This document shows, piece by piece, positions 16,363 to 28,844 of a stretch of DNA of 64,000 nucleotides; position 1 is the first letter of the stretch; the number at the start of each line of letters is the position of its first letter. Source of the DNA: Alphaproteobacteria bacterium (lineage in GTDB: Bacteria > Pseudomonadota > Alphaproteobacteria > SP197); assembly GCA_965221115.1 (NCBI GenBank), contig CBDCRU010000002.1, positions 628,172 to 692,171 on the forward strand, in the 5' to 3' direction. The position numbers and the translations under genes were made by a program. A model generated the notes under the pieces. That model worked only from the letters and a program-made list of their open reading frames with translations. It ran no database searches and was not told the DNA's origin.

Positions 16363-18225
16363 ATGACGCACGATTTTTCCCATGATGTCATCGTCATCGG
16401 TGGCGGACATGCCGGCACCGAGGCGGCTGCGGCTGCGGCGCGGTGTGGCGCAGCGACGCTTCTTGTGACCCTGCGCCGTGAGACCATTGGCGCCATGTCG
16501 TGCAATCCCGCCATCGGCGGCCTCGGCAAGGGGCACCTGGTGCGTGAGATTGACGCCCTGGACGGAGTCATGGGACTGGCCATCGATCGCTCCGGCATCC
16601 AGTTCCGTCTTCTCAATGCCAGCAAGGGCCCCGCCGTCCGGGGCCCCAGAGCCCAGGCCGACCGGTCGCTCTATGCCCAGGCAGTCAGAAATATTATTCA
16701 AGAACAACAAGAACTTGACGTTCTCGAAGGTGAGGTGTCAGACTTGGTTGTAGACACGGACGGAGGGATTGCCGGCGTCAGGCTCGCCGACGGCAGGGTC
16801 TGTCGTGGTCGTGCCGTGATTCTCACCACCGGAACCTTCCTGCGCGGGATGATTCACGTCGGTGACGAGCGCTGGCCGGCGGGACGGATCGATGAGGACG
16901 CCACCGTGGCGCTTGCCGCGACGCTCGAGCGGCACCGCTTTTCCCTTGGACGATTGAAAACGGGGACGCCGCCGCGGGTTGACGCAAGGACCATCGACCA
17001 TGCCGCCCTGGAGGTCCAACCCGGAGACGATCCTCCGCAACCGTTCTCGTGGCTGACGGACGCCATCACCGTGCCGCAGGTTCCCTGTCATGTGACGGCG
17101 ACCACGAAGGCCACGCACGACGTCATTCGCGCCAACCTTGACCGTGCGCCTGTCTATTCCGGCCGTATCGACGGTACCGGTCCCCGTTACTGCCCGTCCA
17201 TCGAGGACAAGGTGGTGCGGTTCGGCGACCGGGAAAGCCACCGGATCTTTCTGGAGCCCGAGGGCCTCCAGACCACGACGGTCTACCCGAACGGCATTTC
17301 CACGTCGTTGCCGCGCGATGTCCAGGAGGCCTTCGTCGCCACGATACCGGGTCTGACGGGAGCGCGCATCCTGCGTCACGGCTATGCCATCGAGTATGAC
17401 TACGTCGACCCGCGCCAGCTCGATCACACGTTGCAGGCACCGCGGATTGCGGGTCTGTTCCTGGCGGGCCAGATCAACGGCACCACCGGATACGAGGAGG
17501 CGGCGGGCCAGGGACTGGTCGCCGGAATCAACGCGGCGCGCTTCGCTGGAGGTCTTCCCGGCGTACGGTTTGACCGGGCAGAAGCCTATCTCGGCGTCAT
17601 GATCGATGATCTCGTCACGAGAGGGACCACCGAGCCCTACCGCATGTTCACGAGCCGGGCGGAGTACCGTCTCGTTCTGAGGGCCGACAATGCCGACCTG
17701 CGTCTCACGGCGAAGGGCCGCGAGGCCGGGTGTGTCGGCGAGGCCCGATGGCGCGCCTTCTTGCGACGCCGCAACGAGGTCGGGGCGGCCATGATGCGGG
17801 CGTCGGAACTGCGGGTCAGTCCGGACGAAGCGTGCGCGGCAGGGTTCGACGTCAATCGGGACGGTCGTCGGCGAAACCTGTTCGACCTCGCGGCTTCGTC
17901 AGGCGAGGGCGATCAACGGCTGCTGGCCCTGTGGCCGGAGATAGCGTTCTGGCCGGATCATGCCATGGACCAGGTGAGAATTGCCGGTCGCTACCAGGGT
18001 TACCTGGGTCGCATGGAAGCGGACATTGCCGCCTTTCGCCGTGACGAGGCCCTCACGCTTCCTGCCGGCCTCGATTACGCTCGAATTGGCGGACTGTCTG
18101 CGGAAATGCGCGAGACGATGTCAGCCACCCGTCCGGCCACGCTTGGACAGGCGGCACGGCTTCCCGGAGTGACACCGGCCGCCCTGCAGGCCCTGCTTCG
18201 CCATGTCAGGCGGAGTGCGGCATGA
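16363..18225 (+). CDS. mnmG: tRNA uridine 5-carboxymethylaminomethyl modification enzyme MnmG (GidA)
   Basis: [18 protein letters not shown]-binding N-terminus; ATG at 16363 chosen over the longer ORF from 16306. Confidence 0.95.
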
Positions 18226-18836
18226 TCCGCGACGAGGTGTGCCGGCTGCTTGGCGCATCGCCGGAAACATCCGAGCGCCTCGCCGCCTACGTTGCCGTTC
18301 TCGGGGAATGGCAACCGCGTCTCAAGCTCATCGGCCCCGGTACGGTTGATGAGATATGGGCGCGGCATGTACTCGATTGCGGACAGATCGCCCGCTACGT
18401 TCCGCCGACCTGCCGGCGCCTCGTGGATCTCGGGTCGGGCGCCGGTCTGCCCGGCCTGATTCTTGCCATCATGGGGGTCGCCGGCGTCGAGATGGTGGAG
18501 CGGGATGAGAGCAAGGTGGCGTTTCTTCATGCCGCAGCCAATGTCTGTGATGTCGATGTCGGCATTCACGGCATGCGCATCGAGGATCTTCCACGCGGAC
18601 AGGCTGATGTCGTGACGGCCCGTGCCCTGGCTCCCCTCGATGTTCTCCTGCCCATCACGGCCTCCTTTCTGGGTGAGGGCTCCGTTGCCATTTTCCCCAA
18701 GGGAAGATCCGTGGACGACGAACTGAAGTCCGCCGCCCGTCACTGGCACATGTGGTTCCAGCGCCACCCCAGTCTTTCGGATGCGCGATCCAGCGTTCTG
18801 GTCATCAACAGGATACACCATGACTCTCGACCGTGA
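18222..18836 (+). CDS. rsmG: 16S rRNA (guanine527-N7)-methyltransferase RsmG (GidB)
   Basis: [20 protein letters not shown] motif; start overlaps the mnmG stop (ATGA). Confidence 0.9.
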
Positions 18837-19623
18837 CCGCGTTGCACGGCCCCTGGTGGTGGCCGTCGCCAACCAGAAGGGTGGGGTGGGCAAGACGACC
18901 ACCGTCATCAACCTTGCAACCGCCTTTGCCGCCACAGGACACAAGGTCCTCGTCGTCGATGCCGATGCCCAGGGAAATGCCAGCACGGGTCTGGGTGTCG
19001 AGCAGCCGGCCAGAACCGCAACGACATACGACCTGCTGAACGGGGAGCGCGTGACTCCGGCGCCGACCATGATACCGGGCCTCACCATCATTCCGGCGAC
19101 TGCCGATCTTTCCGGTGCAGAGGTTGAACTGGTTGATGTTCCCGACCGCCAGAATGTTCTCGCAAGGGCGTTGTCGGAGGTGGCCGCCGGACATGAATTC
19201 GTGCTTGTCGACTGTCCGCCGTCGCTCAACCTGATGACGATCAACGCCCTGGTTGCCGCCGACGAGGTCCTGGTGCCCATGCAGTGCGAGTTCTTTGCCC
19301 TGGAGGGTCTCTCGCTTCTGCTCGACACCATCGAGAGGGTTTCGGGTACCCATAACCCGGGACTCCACATAGGCGGGATCGTGCTCACGATGTTCGATCG
19401 CCGGAACCGCCTGTCCCGTGAGGTGGAACGGGATGTGCGCCGCGTCATGGGGGATGTCGTCTACCACACGCTCATTCCGCGCAATGTCAGGGTCAGTGAG
19501 GCGCCATCACACGGTATGCCTGTGATTCTATACGATGTTGACTGTGCGGGCGCGCGCGCCTACGTGCGCCTGGCACGTGAATTCCTGCGCCGCCATGCCA
19601 CGCAATCAGAGAGTGCCGCATGA
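18820..19623 (+). CDS. parA: Chromosome partitioning ATPase ParA
   Basis: Deviant Walker A VANQKGGVGKTTT; start chosen at ATG 18820 ([16 protein letters not shown]...). Confidence 0.9.
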   Translation: MTLDRDRVARPLVVAVANQKGGVGKTTTVINLATAFAATGHKVLVVDADAQGNASTGLGVEQPARTATTYDLLNGERVTPAPTMIPGLTIIPATADLSGAEVELVDVPDRQNVLARALSEVAAGHEFVLVDCPPSLNLMTINALVAADEVLVPMQCEFFALEGLSLLLDTIERVSGTHNPGLHIGGIVLTMFDRRNRLSREVERDVRRVMGDVVYHTLIPRNVRVSEAPSHGMPVILYDVDCAGARAYVRLAREFLRRHATQSESAA

Positions 19624-20498
19624 CGAGATCGAGAGGCCTCGGGCGCGGCCTCGACGCGCTCATCGGAACGCCGGCAAGGACAGCTGTCTCCGGCATGCGC
19701 ACCGTTTCCATCGCGGAACTGAGGCCCGGCCGTTTTCAGCCACGCACCCGTTTCGACGATCAGGACATCGACGGCCTGGCCCGCTCTCTCGCGGACAGCG
19801 GCATGATGCAGCCCATCATCGTCAGGCCCGCTGCCGACGGCATGATGGAGATTGTCGCCGGTGAGAGACGCTGGCGGGCGGCGCAGCGGGCGAAGCTCCA
19901 CGATGTTCCGGTTGTCATCAAGGAGATGAGCGACCGCGAGGCCCTGGAACATGGTCTGGTCGAAAACCTGCAGCGCGAGGATCTCGGTCCCGTGGAGGAA
20001 GCGGCGGGCTACCGCCGTCTCAACGAGGAATTCGCCCTGACCCAGGAGGAGATTGCGGCCCTTGTCGGCAAGGGCAGGGTCCATGTCGCCAACACGCTGC
20101 GCCTCCTCCAGCTTCCCGAACCGGTGCGCAAGCTGATCAATGAAGGACAACTCAGTGCGGGCCATGGACGTGCCCTGCTGGGAGCCCGCCAGCCGGAGGC
20201 GCTGGCCGCGCGCATTCTGAAGGAGCGTCTGTCGGTGCGCCAGACCGAGGCCCTGGTGCGCAGTCAGGATCAACGCTCGGGTCGTAGCGGACGGACGAGA
20301 CACGTCGATCCCGACATCCGGGCACTCGAACGACGGCTTGGCGAGGCAACAGGCCTGAAGGTCGCGATCAGCCCGAAGGGCGAGAAAGGGAGACTGACAC
20401 TGACCTACCGGACCCTTCAACAGCTCGACGACATCATTGCGCGCCTCGAACGAGGTCTCATAATTCCAGACAACCGACAAACCGAGGAGGCATCATGA
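19620..20498 (+). CDS. parB: Chromosome partitioning protein ParB
   Basis: MTRSRGLGRGLDALIG N-terminus, the GERRWRAA ParB box and an HTH region; overlaps the parA stop. Confidence 0.9.
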   Translation: MTRSRGLGRGLDALIGTPARTAVSGMRTVSIAELRPGRFQPRTRFDDQDIDGLARSLADSGMMQPIIVRPAADGMMEIVAGERRWRAAQRAKLHDVPVVIKEMSDREALEHGLVENLQREDLGPVEEAAGYRRLNEEFALTQEEIAALVGKGRVHVANTLRLLQLPEPVRKLINEGQLSAGHGRALLGARQPEALAARILKERLSVRQTEALVRSQDQRSGRSGRTRHVDPDIRALERRLGEATGLKVAISPKGEKGRLTLTYRTLQQLDDIIARLERGLIIPDNRQTEEAS

Positions 20499-21655
20499 TA
20501 TCCATGAAAATGTCACGTCTCGTGGGGACGCTGCTGCTGGCAGTCGTTGTCGCCGGCATTCACGGCGTCGCCCCGCAACAGGCCCGTGCGGCCGAAGAGG
20601 TGGATATAGCGATCATATCGTTCTCGCCCTATGCACCCTGGTACATCGTTCAGGAAAGGGGCCTTGCCCGCGACATCGATCTCAACATACGGATCATCGA
20701 GGACATCACCGCGAAGAACGCGGCACTGACAACCGGAACGGTCCAGTGCATGCTGAATACCCTCGATTCAGTCGTCGTGGCCCGCGCCTCGGGAGTTCCC
20801 GTCAAGGTCATCGCCATACCTGCGATGTCGTACGGACTCGATGAGATGATTGTCGATGAGTCCATTGAATCCGTCGACGATTTTCCGGGAAGGAGCTACG
20901 GCGCCGATTTCGCCTTCCTCAATCACATGTGGATGCTGCTCACGCTGAAGAAGGCAGGCATTGCCTTCGACGCCCTTGATCACAAGATCATGCTTCCCCA
21001 GGACAGTGCTGCTGCGTTCACGAGCGGTCAGCTGGACATCGACGTCAATTACAAGCCGTTTTCGTCGCAGTCGGCCGACCGCGCTGGTTCCCGTATTCTC
21101 AAGACCAGCCTGACGGACCGGACATGGGAACGCGGTCTCATCTCCGAGTCCATTGCCTGCAACGAGGACTGGCTGGCGGACAATCCCGATGTTGCCACGG
21201 AACTGCTGAGGGCATGGTTTGAAGCCGTGGACTGGTGGAAGGCCAACCCCGAAGAAGGGAACGATATGGTTGCCCAGGGCCTCGACTGGCCCGTTGCCGA
21301 TGTTCGCGAGACACAGTATGGCGCTATCATGCTGAATCTTGATCAGAATCTTGGCGCGTTCGGTGTCGGCGAAGGCAAGCCTGTCTGCCAGAGCCTGCCA
21401 GAGGGGGCACCGGAACCGCCCGCGGAACCGAGCGGTTGGGGCGACATGCTGTTCGATGGTGAGCCTGACTGTGCGCCCGGCTACCTTGCGGCTACCTGGG
21501 AGCTCTTCGGCGAGGTCTACATGGAGGCCGGTGTCATCGACTCGTTTGCCTCATCGGAGGAGGGCGTCGACCTGTCGATCCTCGAGGCACTTGACAGTGC
21601 CGGCGCCTCGCAGACCTGGTCTTCGAACACATGGATCGGAAGGGTGGGTCTGTAG
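20495..21655 (+). CDS. Periplasmic ABC-type substrate-binding protein, NMT1/SsuA-like (orphan, no adjacent permease or ATPase)
   Basis: Signal peptide MKMSRLVGTLLLAVVVAGIHG; aggagg RBS 6 nt upstream of ATG 20495. Confidence 0.7.
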   Translation: MISMKMSRLVGTLLLAVVVAGIHGVAPQQARAAEEVDIAIISFSPYAPWYIVQERGLARDIDLNIRIIEDITAKNAALTTGTVQCMLNTLDSVVVARASGVPVKVIAIPAMSYGLDEMIVDESIESVDDFPGRSYGADFAFLNHMWMLLTLKKAGIAFDALDHKIMLPQDSAAAFTSGQLDIDVNYKPFSSQSADRAGSRILKTSLTDRTWERGLISESIACNEDWLADNPDVATELLRAWFEAVDWWKANPEEGNDMVAQGLDWPVADVRETQYGAIMLNLDQNLGAFGVGEGKPVCQSLPEGAPEPPAEPSGWGDMLFDGEPDCAPGYLAATWELFGEVYMEAGVIDSFASSEEGVDLSILEALDSAGASQTWSSNTWIGRVGL

Positions 21656-21665
21656 CGATCCCTTG

Positions 21666-21705
21666 TCGTCACCCCTTGCACGGCCTGTCCTGCAAGGGGT
21701 GACGA
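21666..21705. terminator. 15-bp GC-rich hairpin between convergent genes (no clear U-tract)
   Basis: tcgtcaccccttgca-N10-tgcaaggggtgacga, between the SBP gene end (21655) and the tyrC end (21706). Confidence 0.35.
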
Positions 21706-22593
21706 TCAGGCCTGGCCTGCGTCAATGATGCCGCGGCGGATGTCCCGGCTTCTGCGGAAGAGATCCTCGAGTTCCTCGCCCTCGCCCCAGCGAATGGCGC
21801 GCTGGAGCCTGGAGAGGTCTTCGTTGAAACGCTGGAGCATTTCGAGAACGGCTTCGCGGTTGTTGAGGTAGACATCACGCCACATCACGGGATCCTGGGC
21901 CGCGATCCTCGTGAAGTCCCTGAATCCGCTCGCAGAATATTTGATCACCTCCTGCCTGGTATGGTTCTCCATGTCGGCGACGGTGCCGACGATGTTGAAG
22001 GCGATCAGTGTCGGCAGATGGGATGTCAGCGCCATGACCCAGTCGTGGTGGTCGGCATCGATGATATCGATCATGGAACCGGCCTGGCGCCACAGTTCGC
22101 AGACCTTTTCGATGGCTTCGGGATCTGTGCCTGAAGGGGGCGTCAGCACGCACCAGCGGCCCTCGAACAGGGTGTCGAAGCCGCTTTCCGGACCCGACTC
22201 CTCCGTTCCGGCAAGAGGATGGCCGGGAACGAAGTGAACGCCCTCCGGAATCGCCGGCGCCACGTCACGGATGACGGCCTGCTTCACGGACCCCACATCG
22301 GTCACAATCTGACCCGGGGTCAGGACGGGCGCTATGGCCCGGGCAATCATGCCGTTGGTCCCGATCGGCGTGGAGATGACCACCAGATCGGCGCCGCGGG
22401 CCGCCTCGGCATGGTCCTTCGTCACCGTATCGGCCAGGCCCAGTGTCCTGACCGTCTCCAGGGTTGAATCACGGCGCGCACAGGCGACGATCCGGCGGGC
22501 AATCCCCTTGCGGCGAATGACCCGCGCAAGCGAGGAGCCGATCAGGCCGATGCCGATCAGGCAGACCGTATCGAACAGCGGGTCCCGGGTCAT
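21706..22593 (-). CDS. tyrC: Prephenate/cyclohexadienyl dehydrogenase
   Basis: VCLIGIGLIGSSLA NAD-binding N-terminus; located downstream of hisC as in many alphaproteobacteria. Confidence 0.85.
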   Translation of the reverse strand: MTRDPLFDTVCLIGIGLIGSSLARVIRRKGIARRIVACARRDSTLETVRTLGLADTVTKDHAEAARGADLVVISTPIGTNGMIARAIAPVLTPGQIVTDVGSVKQAVIRDVAPAIPEGVHFVPGHPLAGTEESGPESGFDTLFEGRWCVLTPPSGTDPEAIEKVCELWRQAGSMIDIIDADHHDWVMALTSHLPTLIAFNIVGTVADMENHTRQEVIKYSASGFRDFTRIAAQDPVMWRDVYLNNREAVLEMLQRFNEDLSRLQRAIRWGEGEELEDLFRRSRDIRRGIIDAGQA

Positions 22594-23687
22594 GTTTCGC
22601 CCATGAAGCGGGTGAGGCTGTCGATGAGCGCCTCCATCTCGTCGTCGAGGCCGATGTTGATCCGCAGGCCGTCAGGGATGCCGTAGGCACCGAGGTCGCG
22701 GACAAGAATGGCCCGGGATGCCAGGAACCGCTCCGCGGCCGCGGCCTGGGAAGGGCCGCCCGGGAAGCGCGCAAGGACGAAGTTGACGACGCTCACGGGA
22801 ACATCGAGCCCGATCGCCTTCAGGCGCCGGGTGAGCTCCGGAAGCCAGCGGTCGTTGTGCTCGATGGCGCGCTGCAGGTGGTCGGGATCGTCCAGAGCCG
22901 CGGTTGCCGCAGCCTGGCCAACGGCGTTGACATTGAAGGGACCGCGGACCCTGTGAAACGCATCGACGACGTCCGGTGGACCGTACATCCAGCCGACCCT
23001 GAGACCGGCCAGGGAATAGACTTTGGAGAACGTCCGCGTCATGACGGTGTTGGTGCTGTCATGCACCAGCTCGGCCCCGGCACGGTAGTCGTTGCGGGTG
23101 ACGAATTCGGCGTAGGCGGAATCGATCACGAGAAGAACGTGATCCGGCAGGCCGGCCCGCAGCCTGGCGACGTCGCTGGCCGGGATGACACTTCCGGTCG
23201 GATTGTTGGGATTGGCAAGGAAGACCAGCTTCGTCTTGTCGGTAACTGCCGCCAGCATGGCCTCGACATCCACCCGGAAGGCGCGTTCGGGAGCACTGAC
23301 AGGTGTTGCACCGGCCGCCATGGCCGCGATCGGGTAGATGGCAAAGCCGTACTGGCTGTAAAGGACCTCGTCGCCGGGACCGGCGTAGATGCGTGGCAGC
23401 AACTGGAGAATCTCATCTGATCCGTTGCTGCATACGATTCTCTCCGGGTCAAGGTCGCAGCGCCGGGCAATGGCCTCGCGAAGATCAAGGGCGCTGCCAT
23501 CGGGATAGCGGACCACGCCGGCCGCTGCCTCCTGCGCCGCCTCGACGGCACGCGGACTGGGCCCGAGAGCCGACTCGTTCGAAGACAGCTTGATGACGCG
23601 GCGGCCCTGGGCGTCGGTGGCGGAGCTTCTTCCCGGCACATAGGCCTTGATATCGAGAATGCCGGCACGGGGTGCGGGTGCGTTCAT
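22590..23687 (-). CDS. hisC: Histidinol-phosphate aminotransferase
   Basis: LSSNESALGPSP and a PLP-fold class II aminotransferase signature. Confidence 0.9.
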   Translation of the reverse strand: MNAPAPRAGILDIKAYVPGRSSATDAQGRRVIKLSSNESALGPSPRAVEAAQEAAAGVVRYPDGSALDLREAIARRCDLDPERIVCSNGSDEILQLLPRIYAGPGDEVLYSQYGFAIYPIAAMAAGATPVSAPERAFRVDVEAMLAAVTDKTKLVFLANPNNPTGSVIPASDVARLRAGLPDHVLLVIDSAYAEFVTRNDYRAGAELVHDSTNTVMTRTFSKVYSLAGLRVGWMYGPPDVVDAFHRVRGPFNVNAVGQAAATAALDDPDHLQRAIEHNDRWLPELTRRLKAIGLDVPVSVVNFVLARFPGGPSQAAAAERFLASRAILVRDLGAYGIPDGLRINIGLDDEMEALIDSLTRFMGET

Positions 23688-23700
23688 GGTGTTACCGGAG

Positions 23701-24486
23701 TCAGTCCTGAAACGGTGCGGGATAGGACCCCAGGACCATGCCCGTCAAGGAATCCATGGTGATACGACGCTCTTCATCTCCCTCGTGCCAGCCTTCGACC
23801 GTGGTGATCCGGACATTCTTATGCGCATCATCGGGCTCGTCCAAAACGGCGATCACGGTCCGGTCGTCTCCCGACGCCTCGGGAGCGGTGGCCGACAGCA
23901 CGAAGGCCTCGCAACGTGACCCGGATCCGGGTGCCGGAGGAACGAACGGCAGCAGGGCCACGATATGGAGGGCGTCAGGCCCCTCGCCGGCAAGCAATCG
24001 CAGGGCGTCGCGGTCCGCAGTCGGGATCACGGCCAGCCGGTCACGGCCTTCCTTCACCCGGTGCATGGCGGCGATGGCATCGTCGGTTTCAGGCATCAGG
24101 GTGGCCGATCCGTAGAAATCACGTGCGGTGTCACGCAGACCAGGTTCCGATCCACCCACCACAACCGAGAACGTTCCCTGGAGCGGCAACAGGGCACACA
24201 CCATTTCACGCCACATGCGCACCAGTGCCGCCGGTGGAAAGACGCCGCGGTTGCGGGCAAGGATACGGCGCAGGATGATCGCCTCTCGGCCTGGCCTGAG
24301 GAAGCGGTGGAGCGTGCCGGCTTCCGTCTTGGCCGCCGTGACTTCGTCGACGAGTTCGACGCGGCGCAGGATAAGATCGAGAATGCTGTCATCGACAGCG
24401 TCGATCTCCCGGCGCAGGCGGGCGAGGGTGTGTTCGGGCGAAATCAGAGTGATGCCCCGGATGACGTGATGAATCAGGGATGATGT
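23701..24486 (-). CDS. Chorismate mutase (AroQ) domain fused to a ~170-aa C-terminal domain; 5' end apparently disrupted (no canonical start for the CM domain)
   Basis: In-frame translation upstream of the annotated 173-aa ORF gives ISPEHTLARLRREIDAVDDSILDLILRRVELVDEVTAAKTEAGTLHRFLRPGREA, a typical AroQ helix 1. The only canonical start is GTG 24220, which would delete it; an in-frame TAA lies at 24487-24489. Confidence 0.5.
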   Translation of the reverse strand, partial: TSSLIHHVIRGITLISPEHTLARLRREIDAVDDSILDLILRRVELVDEVTAAKTEAGTLHRFLRPGREAIILRRILARNRGVFPPAALVRMWREMVCALLPLQGTFSVVVGGSEPGLRDTARDFYGSATLMPETDDAIAAMHRVKEGRDRLAVIPTADRDALRLLAGEGPDALHIVALLPFVPPAPGSGSRCEAFVLSATAPEASGDDRTVIAVLDEPDDAHKNVRITTVEGWHEGDEERRITMDSLTGMVLGSYPAPFQD

Positions 24487-24569
24487 TTAGGTGACATCGT
24501 CACCAAAGGCAAAACCGGACAGTGACAAGCGACTGATGCCTCCCACTCGAAACCGGTGCGTCGCGACTG

Positions 24570-24911
24570 CTACCTCGAAGCGGGTTGCCGGAGATCGATC
24601 ACACCGTGACTGTGGACGATTTCCTTCTCGATCCGGGTGTTCTGTTCGCAGAAGATCACCAGATTTTTCGAGTCCGGCGTCCGTACGTTGGGCACTACAA
24701 TTTCGGCGGCACCCAAAAACGCACAGGCTTCGGCAGTTTCCTGGAAGCGCCGCTCCCCGATCGCCGCTTGCCGCGTTTCCGACGTACAGAGAACATCGAA
24801 TGTGCCGTCATCCCAGCGACCGCCTGAGCACCAGCAGGCAAGCAGGTCTCGACCCTCCCGTATCGATCGCCACACGGTTCCGCCATAGGAGTTCCGATCC
24901 AGCGAATCCAA
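24570..24911 (-). CDS. Hypothetical protein (TTG start, 113 aa) in a lower-GC inserted segment
   Basis: Protein-like composition but no ATG and no recognisable family. Confidence 0.25.
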   Translation of the reverse strand: MDSLDRNSYGGTVWRSIREGRDLLACWCSGGRWDDGTFDVLCTSETRQAAIGERRFQETAEACAFLGAAEIVVPNVRTPDSKNLVIFCEQNTRIEKEIVHSHGVIDLRQPASR

Positions 24912-25188
24912 CGCATCCAGGAAGTCATGGTCACGGATTGATTGACGAAATCCCGAACCATTCCGTGTTGCTATGGTCAGAGATATGCATCCGCATCAAG
25001 ACAGCCCGGAATGGCGATGACGTCCCAGGAACGATCGTCGCGAATCAGATCGATCGAAGGCGCACCGACAAGTCGTCGGCGTCAATAGTGATGACGCATC
25101 GTTTTGACCGCACCGAAGGCCGAACGCATCGCGACCTCATCGACCGTCGACGCCGTGGTCTCCGCCGGTTGCCGTGCCGTGTCGACCG

Positions 25189-25590
25189 TCAGGGGTGTCG
25201 GGGTTCTCCCATGACGGAGAACCCGAGCGTCGTCGCCACCGAAGCCTGTCGCGTATCCAGTGTTGCGACCGACAGGTCACCGGGTTGTGGAGAGACGTAA
25301 AGAGCGGTCGCCAAATGCCAGAGATCCGCACCGCGCAGGTATCCTGCTTCGAGAACCGACACCAACTCCCCCGTGAGTGGCCGATCAGGGAGGACCCAAT
25401 CGATTCCCGCGAGGCTGTGTTCCTGAAAGACAAGGTTCTCGCGTGCGAATGCCGCCCGCGCTTCGGCCTCAAGCAGGTTGGACGAAACGAGGCGTGTGCA
25501 TGCATTGAGATGCCGGGCCAGGCCGGATGCACCGGGTTCATCAAAAATGATGGCTATCAGTGCGGAGGAGTCGACGTAGGCGACACTCAT
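25189..25590 (-). CDS. vapC: PIN-domain ribonuclease toxin VapC
   Basis: MSVAYVDSSALIAIIFDEPG with the acidic residues of a PIN domain; 4-bp overlap with the upstream antitoxin gene. Confidence 0.85.
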   Translation of the reverse strand: MSVAYVDSSALIAIIFDEPGASGLARHLNACTRLVSSNLLEAEARAAFARENLVFQEHSLAGIDWVLPDRPLTGELVSVLEAGYLRGADLWHLATALYVSPQPGDLSVATLDTRQASVATTLGFSVMGEPRHP

Positions 25591-25865
25591 CCGTCCCGCT
25601 CATCGAGGAATCGCGTGAGCGCGCCGGGCCGGCGCTCAACGGGTCCCATGTTTCTCCCTGAGATGGCTGCTTGGACCAGGCAACCGTTGCGTTCAAGTTC
25701 TGCGAGCCGATCGTCAAGTGCAGGATTGGCCTGTTCCTTGATCGCGCGGATCTCTGCCACGGGCTCTCCGCGGTAGGAAACCGTAACCGTCTTGCCGTCG
25801 CGCACCTGGCGGAGCACTTCGGAGAAACGCGCCTTTGCCTCGTACACGGAATATGTGATCGCCAT
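25587..25865 (-). CDS. Phd/YefM-family antitoxin
   Basis: MAITYSVYEAKARFSEVLRQVRDGKTVTVSYRGEPVAEIR is the classic Phd/YefM N-terminus; ATG 25865 chosen over the longer ORF. Confidence 0.8.
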   Translation of the reverse strand: MAITYSVYEAKARFSEVLRQVRDGKTVTVSYRGEPVAEIRAIKEQANPALDDRLAELERNGCLVQAAISGRNMGPVERRPGALTRFLDERDG

Positions 25866-26366
25866 GAATGCATCATAACTAGTCAGTCTAGTCATTGCAA
25901 CGAGCCGACACGTTTCGTGCACGTACGCTGTGCCGTTACGGGTGATCGCTGGCTACCAGTCGAGCACCAAGGAACCCGCGCCTCCGACCGCTGCAGATAA
26001 CATCTTGTCCCTCGGATTTCGCTCCTCTTGTCGTTGCCGTTGCGGCCCTCCCGTGACATCTGCCCGTCGGCCGTCCAGAACGCCGGCCACGGCCAGGAAA
26101 GGCACACCCGAACGGATCGAGGCCAATCGGCCGCCACGCTCGACGATCCGGCCGGGCGCGGGAAGCAGCGGAGGTGAGGCCGGTGCGTCAGAACCCTGTC
26201 AGCCAGATACGATGACCGTATCCGCTGGTTCGATCAGTTGCAGGTCAAGGGGCGCCTGGATGGTGAATCCGGCCGCTGCTCTCAGAGGTCCGCTCTCAAT
26301 CGCGCAGATCTCGAACCGGTACCAGCGCCGGTCCGGTTCCGGTCGGGGCAGACCAAATGTTTCGAT

Positions 26367-27710
26367 GGGGAATTATATAGGAAAGTCACCATGATCGCCT
26401 TGACTTCCGGGCGTTCACGAGGGATGATGCGCGTGTGGTTTGGGGTCGCCTGCCCCGCCCCGCCAAACGGCCAATGGAGGGCCGACCGCGCATGGCTCAG
26501 GATACTCACGAATATCGGCAAGTCACCTACCGGTTGCTCCCCGGCAGCCGGGCGAAGGCGCGCCAGCTTGCGGCCACCGCGGGCGCGTGCCGCTTCGTCT
26601 GGAACATGCTTCTCGATCAGCAGGAGCAGCTTGTTGCGGCGGCGAGACTGGCGGGAGCGGACCGGCTGCCAGGCGTGTCGTTCTTCACGCTCGGCAAGGC
26701 CTTCACGCAGCTTCGACGTGTCACGCCGTGGCTGCAGGAGATGCCGTTCGCGCCGGTACGTTACACTCAAGTACCAGGCGGATGCGTGGCAGGCGTTCTT
26801 CTCCGGACACGCCGGACGGCCCCGCTTCAAGCGTCGGGGTCAGGACTCGGTGACGCTCCCGGACAACGTCCGCATCCGGAACGGCATGCTGCACGTCCCG
26901 AAGATCGGGCCGATGCGGCTTCGCCGCCGGGGAGGGAACCCTCACTCCGAAGGCGAGCCGGTGCAGGCGGTGATCAGGCAGCACTGCGGCAAGTGGTACG
27001 CCACGGTCTGCTACCGCGTGGCGTCTGTCGAGCGGCCCGACGACGGTACGGTGACCGGCCTCGACATGAACACAGGCCAGGTGGCAGACAGCAACGGGCA
27101 TATTCACCATGCACCGAAGACGCGCCGCCTCGAAGCCCGCAGGCGGCGCTACCAGAAGAAGCTGGCGAGACAGGTGCGCGGTTCCCGGCGTCGCAAGAAG
27201 ACGCGGCGCCAGCTTGCCCGAACGCAACGCCGGATCGCCATGTGTCGCCGCAACTGGCAGCATCATGTTTCCCGGGCCCTGGCTGGCGGAACCGTCGTCA
27301 TCGAGGATCTCAACACAAAGGCCATGACACGGAGCGCAAAGGGAACGGTCGAGCACCCCGGGACGAACGTGAAGGCGAAGACCGGACTGAACCGGGAAAT
27401 CCTCGCCACCGGCTGGGGCGACTTGCGTGCCATGCTCGACTACAAGGCCCCGCGCGTCGTGGTTGTCAATCCGGCCTACACGAGCCAAACCTGTGCGGCG
27501 TGCGGCGCGGTTGACGCCGCTTCGCGCCGGGGCAGGACATTCGAATGCGTGGCCTGCGGCCATGCGGACCATGCGGACCTGAACGCGGCCCGCACCATAC
27601 GGCGTCGGGGACAGGCGCTGCTGCACGGGGAGGTTGCCGCATCGAGCGGGCCTGCGAACCGTGAAACGGATCGGTGGGCCGCATGAATGTGACTCTCCTA
27701 TATATGTCCC
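26367..27710 (+). mobile_element. TnpB-only insertion element (IS200/IS605-family tnpB, IS1341-like) bounded by ~23-bp imperfect inverted repeats and flanked by a 7-bp direct repeat TTTCGAT
   Basis: Left GGGGAATTATATAGGAAAGTCACC versus reverse complement of right GGGACATATATAGGAGAGTCAC; TTTCGAT at 26360-26366 and 27711-27717. Confidence 0.6.
26492..27686 (+). pseudogene. tnpB: tnpB (RNA-guided nuclease of the IS200/IS605 family) with a -1 frameshift near 26763-26768
   Basis: N-terminal part YRQVTYRLLPGSRAKARQLAATAGACRFVWN in one frame; the OrfB/RuvC-like region and the zinc finger CAACG...CVACGH continue in the +1 frame; a single missing base in ...gtacgttacactcaag... would restore VRYTLKYQADAW. 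Confidence 0.8.
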
Positions 27711-27893
27711 TTTCGATAGCGTAGCCGAACTCGACCGTGTAGAGACCGTCGCAGACCAGCGCGACGACGGTGGAATGCGGATGGACATCTGTCATTCAGG
27801 CAGGATCCTGCCGACATCGGGCATTCACGCCACTCGTCAATCGTGGGCGGTATCCGGAGACTGACCGCTCCGGTTTCCGGTTGGAGGGCACCG

Positions 27894-28499
27894 ATGCTTC
27901 GTCTCTACGACAACCATCTCTCTGGCAACGGCTACAAGCCGAGGTTGCTTCTGGCCCACCTGGGCAGCGCGTACGAGGCTGTCGAGATCGATATCATGAA
28001 GGGCGAGAGCCGGACCCCGGAGTTCCTCGCCCGCAATCCCAACGGACGGATCCCTCTCCTTGAACTCGAGGACGGCACCTATATCGCCGAGTCCAATGCC
28101 ATTCTTTACTTTCTTGCGGAAGGTTCGCGGTTCCTTCCGGCGGACCGGCTGTCCCGTACTCTTGTCCTGCAGTGGATGTTCTTCGAGCAGTACAGCCACG
28201 AGCCGTTCATCGCGGTTGCGCGCCACTGGATCCAGCATGCAGGGATGTCCGAGGTACAGCGCGCCCAGCTTCCCGACAAGCATGAGGGAGGACATGCCGC
28301 GCTCGCGGTCATGGAGGGGCACCTCTCCGGTTCCGACTGGTTCGTCGGTACCGGCATGACCATCGCCGACATCGCTCTCTATGCCTATACCCACGTTGCG
28401 GACGAAGGCGAATTCGATCTCGCCGGCTACCCGGCCGTTCGCGACTGGCTCGTCCGGGTCCGCGAACAGCCAGGTCACGTTCCCATGCGATCCATGTAG
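27894..28499 (+). CDS. Glutathione S-transferase
   Basis: MLRLYDNHLSGNGYKPRLLLAHLG...ESNAILYFLAE GST N-terminal domain; ggaggg RBS. Confidence 0.85.
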   Translation: MLRLYDNHLSGNGYKPRLLLAHLGSAYEAVEIDIMKGESRTPEFLARNPNGRIPLLELEDGTYIAESNAILYFLAEGSRFLPADRLSRTLVLQWMFFEQYSHEPFIAVARHWIQHAGMSEVQRAQLPDKHEGGHAALAVMEGHLSGSDWFVGTGMTIADIALYAYTHVADEGEFDLAGYPAVRDWLVRVREQPGHVPMRSM

Positions 28500-28844
28500 T
28501 TGTGTGACCGGCCATCGCAAGGCTGGGCGCGTCCGGTGCTGCAATGGCGTCGGACACCCACCTTGTCCGGTCGGGGTCATCGCCGCTTCACCCTTGCGGC
28601 AAGCATTCGCCCGGCAATCGCGCCAAGCCGGGATTGCTGCTCGAACACAGCTTTGATGTTTTCGGGGCGCGCGGCCGTCGTCTCGAACCGTTTCGAGTGC
28701 CGGCAGGATGGTCGACGATGGGCCGAGTGATCGTCCGGTCGAAGGCTTGACAGGCCGGGGTACGGTCTCCATACAGCCCTCCACGCTCCGCTGACTACGA
28801 TCCCGGGTTCATGGCACCTGGTTACACGGCGGAATGAGTTCGAC

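Follow-up and report, generated by a model that had tools for sequence, protein, structure and literature searches.

Translation of the Escherichia coli infC gene starts at an AUU codon that serves autoregulation by IF3, the weak codon acting as the sensor of the feedback loop. CTG starts are already established in Alphaproteobacteria, as ribosome profiling of Caulobacter crescentus assigned them to 0.7% of the coding sequences (PMC4117421), and CUG initiation in E. coli reaches ∼1–2% of that from AUG (10.1101/063800). Here we report a chorismate mutase (CM) gene on the minus strand of a 64,000-nucleotide stretch of alphaproteobacterial DNA (contig CBDCRU010000002.1, positions 628,172 to 692,171; hereafter the window), in which no canonical start codon precedes the CM domain. 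We give a probability of about 0.8 to the reading that this gene is intact and translated from CTG 24447–24445, which would yield a 248-aa protein beginning M-I-S-P-E-H-T-L-A-R-L-R.

The gene resembles the Caulobacter CTG genes (Schrader et al. 2014, PMC4117421) in being alphaproteobacterial, in carrying CTG where its orthologues have ATG, GTG or TTG, and in being mis-called by gene finders, which the same study reports for many starts. It differs in that the Caulobacter starts were mapped by ribosome profiling, whereas the present evidence is comparative only (conservation, selection and Shine-Dalgarno (SD) spacing), and in that a different gene family is concerned, from uncultured organisms known through metagenome-assembled genomes (MAGs). 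Like infC, it is a normal gene under selection apart from its conserved, weak and non-canonical start; the codon here is CUG rather than AUU, and the feedback role is one known for infC. At the protein level, the bifunctional DAHP synthase/CM enzymes (5j6f, 3nvt, 5gmu/5go2) are comparable in that their AroQ domain could be aligned and superposed with the key positions conserved, but their fusion partner is DAHP synthase, whereas here it is a C-terminal α/β domain of ∼150 aa. The P-protein PheA likewise has an N-terminal CM, and the domain that follows it here has a predicted fold weakly resembling prephenate dehydratase; unlike in PheA and the stand-alone prephenate dehydratases (4lub, 3mwb, 6vh5), this domain is shorter and gives no PDT or ACT match.

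The minus-strand frame of the CM gene is open from an in-frame TAA (24489–24487) down to TGA 23703–23701 and contains neither a frameshift nor an internal stop within the window. The first ATG, GTG or TTG after the TAA is GTG 24222–24220, leaving 88 codons without a canonical start, and a mechanical listing of open reading frames (ORFs) returned only a 173-aa ORF for the gene, from this GTG. The 88 start-less codons encode the complete AroQ CM domain, and Pfam CM_2 (56.9 bits against a cut-off of 27) covers residues 24–98 of the read-through translation. The initial annotation had stated both that no ATG, GTG or TTG lies between the TAA and GTG 24220 and that AroQ helix 1 is encoded in frame upstream of the 173-aa ORF, and both statements were borne out. 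The near-cognate codons in frame are CTG 24447–24445, ATT 24444–24442 and ATC 24453–24451. The features of the gene and its 5′ region are listed below, with the evidence for each in brackets; pN/pS denotes the ratio of non-synonymous to synonymous polymorphism.

23701..24447, minus strand: CM gene, 248 aa, with proposed CTG start and TGA stop (Pfam, PDB profile search, AlphaFold, Foldseek, pN/pS)
24445..24447, minus strand: proposed CTG (CUG) initiation codon (codon conservation and column alignment with canonical starts)
24455..24458, minus strand: SD-like GGGG within CCGGGGCATCAC, 7 nt upstream of the CTG (invariant in eight genomes)
24484..24489, minus strand: TAAACA, putative −10 hexamer, its first three bases being the in-frame TAA (invariant in eight genomes)
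24490..24504, minus strand: perfect palindrome GGTGAC-GAT-GTCACC (6-3-6) inside the 17-bp spacer (alignments)
24507..24512, minus strand: TTGCCT, putative −35 hexamer (same alignments)

Seven orthologous loci (L001–L007; 83–92% protein identity) were obtained from a genome scan, all of them from metagenome-assembled Alphaproteobacteria; together with the window they constitute the eight close genomes. The in-frame codons upstream of helix 1 were inspected for 30 loci and for two loci from an exact protein look-up, and the start column was tabulated for 26 sequences. Counted back from the conserved L of LxxLR, this column is six codons away in 25 of the 26 sequences and five in L024. Its codons were distributed as follows.

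CTG: the window, L001–L008 and L082 (10 genomes)
TTG: L081, L011, L012 and L013
GTG: L009 and L010
ATG: 10 more distant loci (Azospirillum, Ferrovibrio, Telmatospirillum and others)

The CTG-bearing genomes extend down to ∼56% protein identity. The third base of the column is G in 26/26 sequences, and nearby leucine codons of helix 1 vary synonymously (L24 CTG/CTT, L38 CTT/CTC, L40 CTG/TTG). In a neighbour-joining tree, a single clade holds all CTG genomes, with the TTG-bearing L081 nested within it; GTG or TTG is found in the outgroups. As read from this column, each of the four NTG codons (ATG, GTG, TTG and CTG) has at some time occupied the start position. The aligned codons indicate that the window and nine related genomes most likely initiate at the conserved CTG, which explains the mis-calls of the gene finders. 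The best explanation of this distribution is that a clade of uncultured Alphaproteobacteria inherited the CTG start from its ancestor, independently of the insertions that neighbour it in the window.

The initial annotation had offered ATT 24442 or CTG as the non-canonical start, of which the CTG gained support; the ATT occurs in the window alone, its place being taken by ACT or ACA in the seven close relatives, and was rejected as window-specific. A start at some other near-cognate codon, whether this ATT, ATC 24453–24451 or the ATC at I28 (the start of the 234-aa public model P0002, whose opening MDTVDD corresponds to the ATC of I28 in L004), draws on the fact that AUU and AUC are about as efficient as CUG in E. 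coli, and on the invariance of ATC 24453–24451 in the eight close genomes. We nevertheless consider it unlikely. The latter ATC is only 1 nt from the GGGG, too near for an SD element, and is not kept in L008, L082 and L081, and was rejected on these two grounds. A start at I28 would lose L21 and R25, family-invariant residues of helix 1, and the CTG column alone matches the canonical starts of the orthologues.

Selection on the coding sequence was analyzed by computing pN/pS and the number of variable sites per codon position among the eight close genomes. The obtained values, with variable sites given for codon positions 1/2/3, were the following.

13 codons between the TAA and the CTG: variable sites 4/5/3, pN/pS 1.30
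Codon after the CTG to codon 87 (no canonical start): variable sites 13/4/29, pN/pS 0.21
Rest of the CM gene: variable sites 38/23/100, pN/pS 0.29

Codon periodicity was absent from the TAA–CTG stretch. TAAACA is separated from the start codon by 36 nt in the close clade, by 31 nt in L008 and by 32 nt in L082; as these lengths differ by 4–5 nt and not by multiples of three, the stretch is non-coding. The selection pattern, together with the 4–5 nt indels upstream, indicates that the CM domain is translated and that the sequence before the CTG is not. Just after the CTG, residues L8, R12, D16 and D19 (numbered in the 248-aa protein) do not vary among 39 members of the family, and the PDB profile search matches them to helix 1 of AroQ mutases of known structure. 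The proposal that CM might be a pseudogene was contradicted by these values, since pN/pS is 0.21 over the start-less CM domain and the frame is intact.

The initial annotation had attributed the missing start to a mobile island (RES fragment, vapBC and TnpB) that replaced the native 5′ end, in which case CM would be an untranslated remnant and only the 173-aa ORF would be made. Foreign DNA does begin nearby, at 24521, the CM domain is preceded by no canonical start, and the G+C content (GC) falls to ∼0.58 over 24350–25100 against ∼0.63–0.69 in the flanking genes. The fall in GC, though modest, was confirmed, and a comparable dip occurs at 20450–21350, within an ordinary gene. The boundary with the inserted DNA proved to be 24520/24521 rather than ∼24450. 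BLAST synteny showed that window positions 18000–24520 are collinear with L001–L007 at 87–97% nucleotide identity, the break falling at 24520/24521. Because this collinearity reaches 24520, the SSLIHHVIRGITLIS stretch, which had been regarded as an unnatural extension of island DNA, is native and represents a conserved non-coding leader with putative promoter sequence. The island starts 74 nt upstream of the proposed CTG, and the conserved promoter-like block is undisturbed.

The relatives that lack the island are decisive on this point. L001–L007 have the same 5′ region with the same TAA, leader and gap in canonical starts at the orthologous position. The TTTGCCTTTGG-(6 nt)-GATGTCACCTAAACA sequence, in-frame TAA included, is invariant in 8/8 close genomes, as is the CCGGGGCATCAC-N-CTG block, while the 24 nt upstream of CCGGGGCATCAC vary freely. 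L002 likewise has no canonical start before the end of the CM domain, and in L001, L003–L005 and L007 the sole canonical codon is a TTG at codon 39, within helix 1. Directly upstream lies an FtrA-type regulator gene in L001, L002, L004, L005 and L007, metX in L003 and L008, and, beyond the conserved block, unrelated DNA in L006; the insertions of the window occur in none of these relatives, and the upstream flanks with an intact ftrA or metX exclude L001–L007 being the same island-bearing genome. As the same 5′ end without a canonical start is found in island-free relatives, the missing start is unrelated to the island. Replacement of the native 5′ end is refuted by these seven loci, and the orthologue alignment that the initial annotation had recommended revealed the same N-terminal region with a conserved non-canonical start, an outcome that it had itself named as contrary to its reading. 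Signs of a pseudogene or a 5′ truncation were not found in the gene, with pN/pS at 0.21–0.29, a strong third-position bias in the CM domain across eight species, and the junction well outside the coding sequence. We therefore regard an untranslated remnant as extremely unlikely. The odd gene model is all that speaks for an assembly or sequencing error behind the TAA or the absent ATG; since eight independent assemblies from different projects agree on both the TAA and the CTG, and ten agree on the CTG, such an error is excluded and the probability of this explanation is negligible.

Bacterial promoters are usually recognized by conserved hexamers at a fixed spacing, and this signature was found at the 5′ end of the gene. 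TAAACA or TAAAAA follows TTGCCT, TTGCCA or TTGCTT at 17 bp in L008, L082, L009, L010, L011 and L013 with differing spacers; the spacers of L009, L010, L011 and L013 bear no relation to the one in the window, and the 17-bp spacing is kept. The corresponding sequence of Azospirillum-type loci is TTGATT-N17-TACTAC. Overall, TTG[AC]NN-N17-TA[AC]NNN recurs at fixed spacing with unrelated spacers in at least 15 family loci. The TAA is out of frame with CM in L008 and L082. We infer that TTGCCT-N17-TAAACA is the CM gene's own promoter, with the TAA opening its −10 hexamer and its in-frame position being incidental.

The palindrome within the spacer is identical in 7/8 close genomes, with GGCGCC as the left arm in L004, and is not kept in L008 and L082. 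Some regulator may use it as an operator; a family-wide operator was rejected, the palindrome being restricted to the close clade. As a separate observation, a GTCAA(C/T)GTTTTCTTTG(A/C)(T/C)TTT sequence is strongly conserved ∼40–75 nt upstream of the CM start in L014, L017, L019, L022, L025 and L027, that is, in Azospirillum-type and other Rhodospirillales loci, and extends well past a −35 hexamer. This GTTTTCTTTG-containing motif may serve these loci as a common site of regulation in the metX–CM divergent region.

An out-of-frame ATG (24496–24494) in the palindrome opens a 7-codon upstream ORF (uORF), MSPKHHP followed by a stop (24473–24496, minus strand). Expression of CM could in principle pass through this uORF, by termination followed by reinitiation or a frameshift on a transcript arriving from further upstream. 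The ATG, which belongs to the invariant block, opens a uORF in 8/8 close genomes; in L003–L006 the uORF runs on to a TGA that overlaps the start (CTGA); the corresponding ATG of L008 shares the CM frame, and a gene caller took it as the start; and vapBC lies on the same strand in the window, so that read-through transcription is possible. We still judge this route very unlikely, since 26 nt separate the end of the uORF from the CTG in the window, L001, L002 and L007, its peptide is not conserved, and its ATG has no preceding SD and sits within the promoter-like spacer, which is unrelated in L009–L013 where the hexamers are retained. Coupling to the uORF was set aside because the end point of the uORF varies between close relatives.

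For initiation at the CTG itself, the following model is proposed. The mRNA would begin ∼30 nt upstream of the CTG, from the TTGCCT-N17-TAAACA promoter, and ribosomes would initiate at CTG 24447–24445, with the GGGG 7 nt upstream acting as a putative ribosome-binding site. Because the pairing between CUG and the initiator tRNA is imperfect, weak initiation is expected, which would make CM the weakly translated first gene of a CM–hisC–tyrC cluster. A CCGGG or CGGGG run is found at a similar distance from the start in L008, L082 and L081. RNA folding gave the start region no excess of structure over shuffled controls (z +1.15), and no structured regulatory leader is therefore proposed; an Rfam scan of 23500–28500 at E ≤ 1 gave no match to any known leader, riboswitch or TnpB-associated RNA family.

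Several observations weigh against initiation at the CTG as modelled. The SD-like element consists of nothing more than the GGGG, a weak match. The near-cognate ATC 24453–24451, invariant in the eight close genomes, and ATT 24444–24442, found in the window alone, also lie between the TAA and helix 1, and L006 has an in-frame TTG 10 codons upstream of the CTG. A generic scan of 24300–24700 for sigma-70 consensus promoters and terminators gave no match; the scan misses TAAACA because it demands T at the last −10 position, and the promoter assignment is consequently drawn from comparative conservation alone. The CM protein may be made at a very low level, CUG being a weak start in E. coli. The case for the CTG is built by comparison (conservation, start alignment and selection pattern).

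It is conceivable, but doubtful, that selection keeps the weak CUG start in place as a translational throttle or sensor for the leading gene of the CM–hisC–tyrC cluster. By analogy with the AUU start of infC, CM output could be sensitive to the status of IF3 or of the initiator tRNA; alternatively, it could depend on the overlapping uORF stop (CTGA) of L003–L006, and a second point of control could be provided by the palindrome in the promoter spacer. The first-position C is retained in 10/11 genomes of the clade across deep divergence, which is compatible with a throttle and equally with tolerance of low expression.

The AroQ fold is a bundle of three helices, and both profile and structure searches recovered it in the N-terminal part of the 248-aa protein. 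NCBIfam TIGR01807 (CM_P2) scored 61.8 bits, slightly below its cut-off of 69.55. In a PDB profile search, the CM domain (∼90 N-terminal residues) aligned over its full length with 5j6f and 3nvt (E 6e-9 to 1.6e-8). The AlphaFold model of the 248-aa protein has a mean predicted local distance difference test (pLDDT) score of 93, with helix 1 beginning at residue 4 (pLDDT >90) and the three-helix AroQ fold predicted as helices 4–43, 52–65 and 72–90 (pLDDT >89). Foldseek matched the CM-like domain of 5go2 with a template modelling (TM) score of 0.80 normalised to the target and a root-mean-square deviation of 1.9 Å. The alignment to 5j6f and 3nvt retains the R of LRxxID, the R of RRxxL, a K, the P-x-R-E motif and a terminal Q, which are invariant or nearly so in the family; from knowledge of the E. 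coli CM, we take these Arg/Arg/Lys/Glu/Gln positions to be the catalytic residues. The N-terminal 90 residues are thus predicted to be an AroQ (type II) CM domain. A family hidden Markov model search of all six frames of the window found no second CM domain, this gene being the only hit.

The C-terminal ∼150 residues (∼92–248; 23701–24180, minus strand) form an α/β domain in the model (pLDDT >90). Foldseek showed a weak likeness to the prephenate dehydratase catalytic domains 4lub, 3mwb and 6vh5 (E 1e-3 to 4e-2), with TM scores of 0.33–0.46 and sequence identity of 10–15%; a weak resemblance to the acylase GqqA (7alz) was also seen. A Pfam search of the protein gave neither a PDT (PF00800) nor an ACT match and the protein ends at 248 aa, so that it does not correspond to a P-protein (CM–prephenate dehydratase–ACT). 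The nearest NCBIfam models belong to the ‘hypothetical protein’ PRK06034 set and scored far under their cut-offs. Downstream of CM, the ORF list contains two further genes of the cluster.

22590–23687, minus strand: hisC-type aminotransferase, 13 nt downstream of the CM gene
21706–22593, minus strand: prephenate/arogenate dehydrogenase, tyrC

CM is the first gene of this CM–hisC–tyrC cluster, and the region is collinear in all relatives. L081 has the same order, with Pfam Aminotran_1_2 and PDH_N/PDH_C in the respective products.

The DNA upstream of the promoter block was compared with that of the relatives to delimit the insertions, which yielded the following features.

24521..25050, no strand: 530-bp inserted segment directly upstream of the promoter block, absent from L001–L007 (synteny)
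24570–24911, minus strand: RES-like ORF, 113 aa (Pfam RES 24.5 bits against a cut-off of 23.2, marginal)
25051–25186: remnant of the ftrA 3′ end, where homology to the relatives resumes
25187..26061, minus strand: vapBC-type cassette, replacing ∼420 bp of the ftrA-like gene (synteny breaks, Pfam, NCBIfam phd_fam)
25189–25590, minus strand: PIN toxin (Pfam PIN)
25587–25922, minus strand: Phd/YefM antitoxin (Pfam PhdYeFM, NCBIfam phd_fam)
26062–26357: middle remnant of ftrA
26358..27718, plus strand: TnpB-only mobile element in the 5′ part of the ftrA-like gene (NCBIfam guided_TnpB 178.6 bits)
27719–27795: first 77 nt of ftrA, adjoining a GST gene

The FtrA-type (DJ-1/AraC) regulator is intact in L002 (4991–5962, 323 aa), where NCBIfam NF006902 scores 490 bits against a cut-off of 425, and DNA matching this gene is also present in L001, L004, L005 and L007. 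The TnpB element is absent from these five genomes. The comparison indicates that three insertions (the 530-bp segment, vapBC and TnpB) destroyed the ftrA-like gene in the window, of which four fragments persist. The island stops 8 nt upstream of the putative −35 hexamer, leaving the CM gene and its core promoter untouched. Given that metX lies directly upstream in L003 and L008 and ftrA or insertions elsewhere, the intergenic site upstream of CM, judged from these arrangements, has been rearranged repeatedly, each time just outside the same promoter block.

Within the inserted DNA, the RES-like ORF contains GGRWDDG...E...VPN motifs and leaves no space for an antitoxin gene; it resembles the toxin component of a RES-Xre toxin-antitoxin pair in a decayed state. 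The ends of the TnpB element carry, on the minus strand, imperfect terminal inverted repeats of ∼22 bp (GGGACATATATAGGAGAGTCAC ... GTGACTTTCCTATATAATTCCCC), and the element is flanked by a 7-bp direct repeat, ATCGAAA, where the uninterrupted L002 gene has a single TACGAGA. Terminal inverted repeats and a target duplication are not expected of a classical IS200/IS605 element. The tnpB frame (26435–27686, plus strand) is split, with model positions 4–70 in the ORF starting at 26435 and positions 78–389 (RuvC/zinc-finger) in the ORF ending at 27686, which points to a frameshift near 26743–26766; tnpB is thus probably a pseudogene.

Public gene models determine how a protein is represented in databases, and a protein search retrieved models P0001–P0012 of the clade in five lengths (222, 234, 254, 275 and 299 aa).

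222-aa model: begins MRRVELV, internal TTG start
234-aa model (P0002): ATC start; NCBI/nr chorismate mutase of a MAG labelled ‘bacterium’, like L004
254-aa model: begins MGQRIIRGITLTSPEHT, spurious upstream start
275- and 299-aa models: long odd extensions, spurious upstream starts

P0002 already invokes a non-canonical start, but places it so as to lose invariant helix-1 residues. Measured against the aligned start column, every public gene model found for the clade is wrong at its 5′ end.

The locus is a new example of CUG initiation, well supported by comparison, and represents no new mechanism or phenomenon. The loss of the ftrA-like regulator would be relevant only if the aromatic amino acid cluster is under its control. 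The practical value of the finding lies in annotation, as it corrects models that shorten or lengthen the protein. Since the shortened models drop invariant residues of helix 1, pathway reconstruction could score these organisms as being without a functional CM. The locus further provides a natural series of ATG, GTG, TTG and CTG at one position, which is useful for the study of start-codon evolution and for the training of gene finders.

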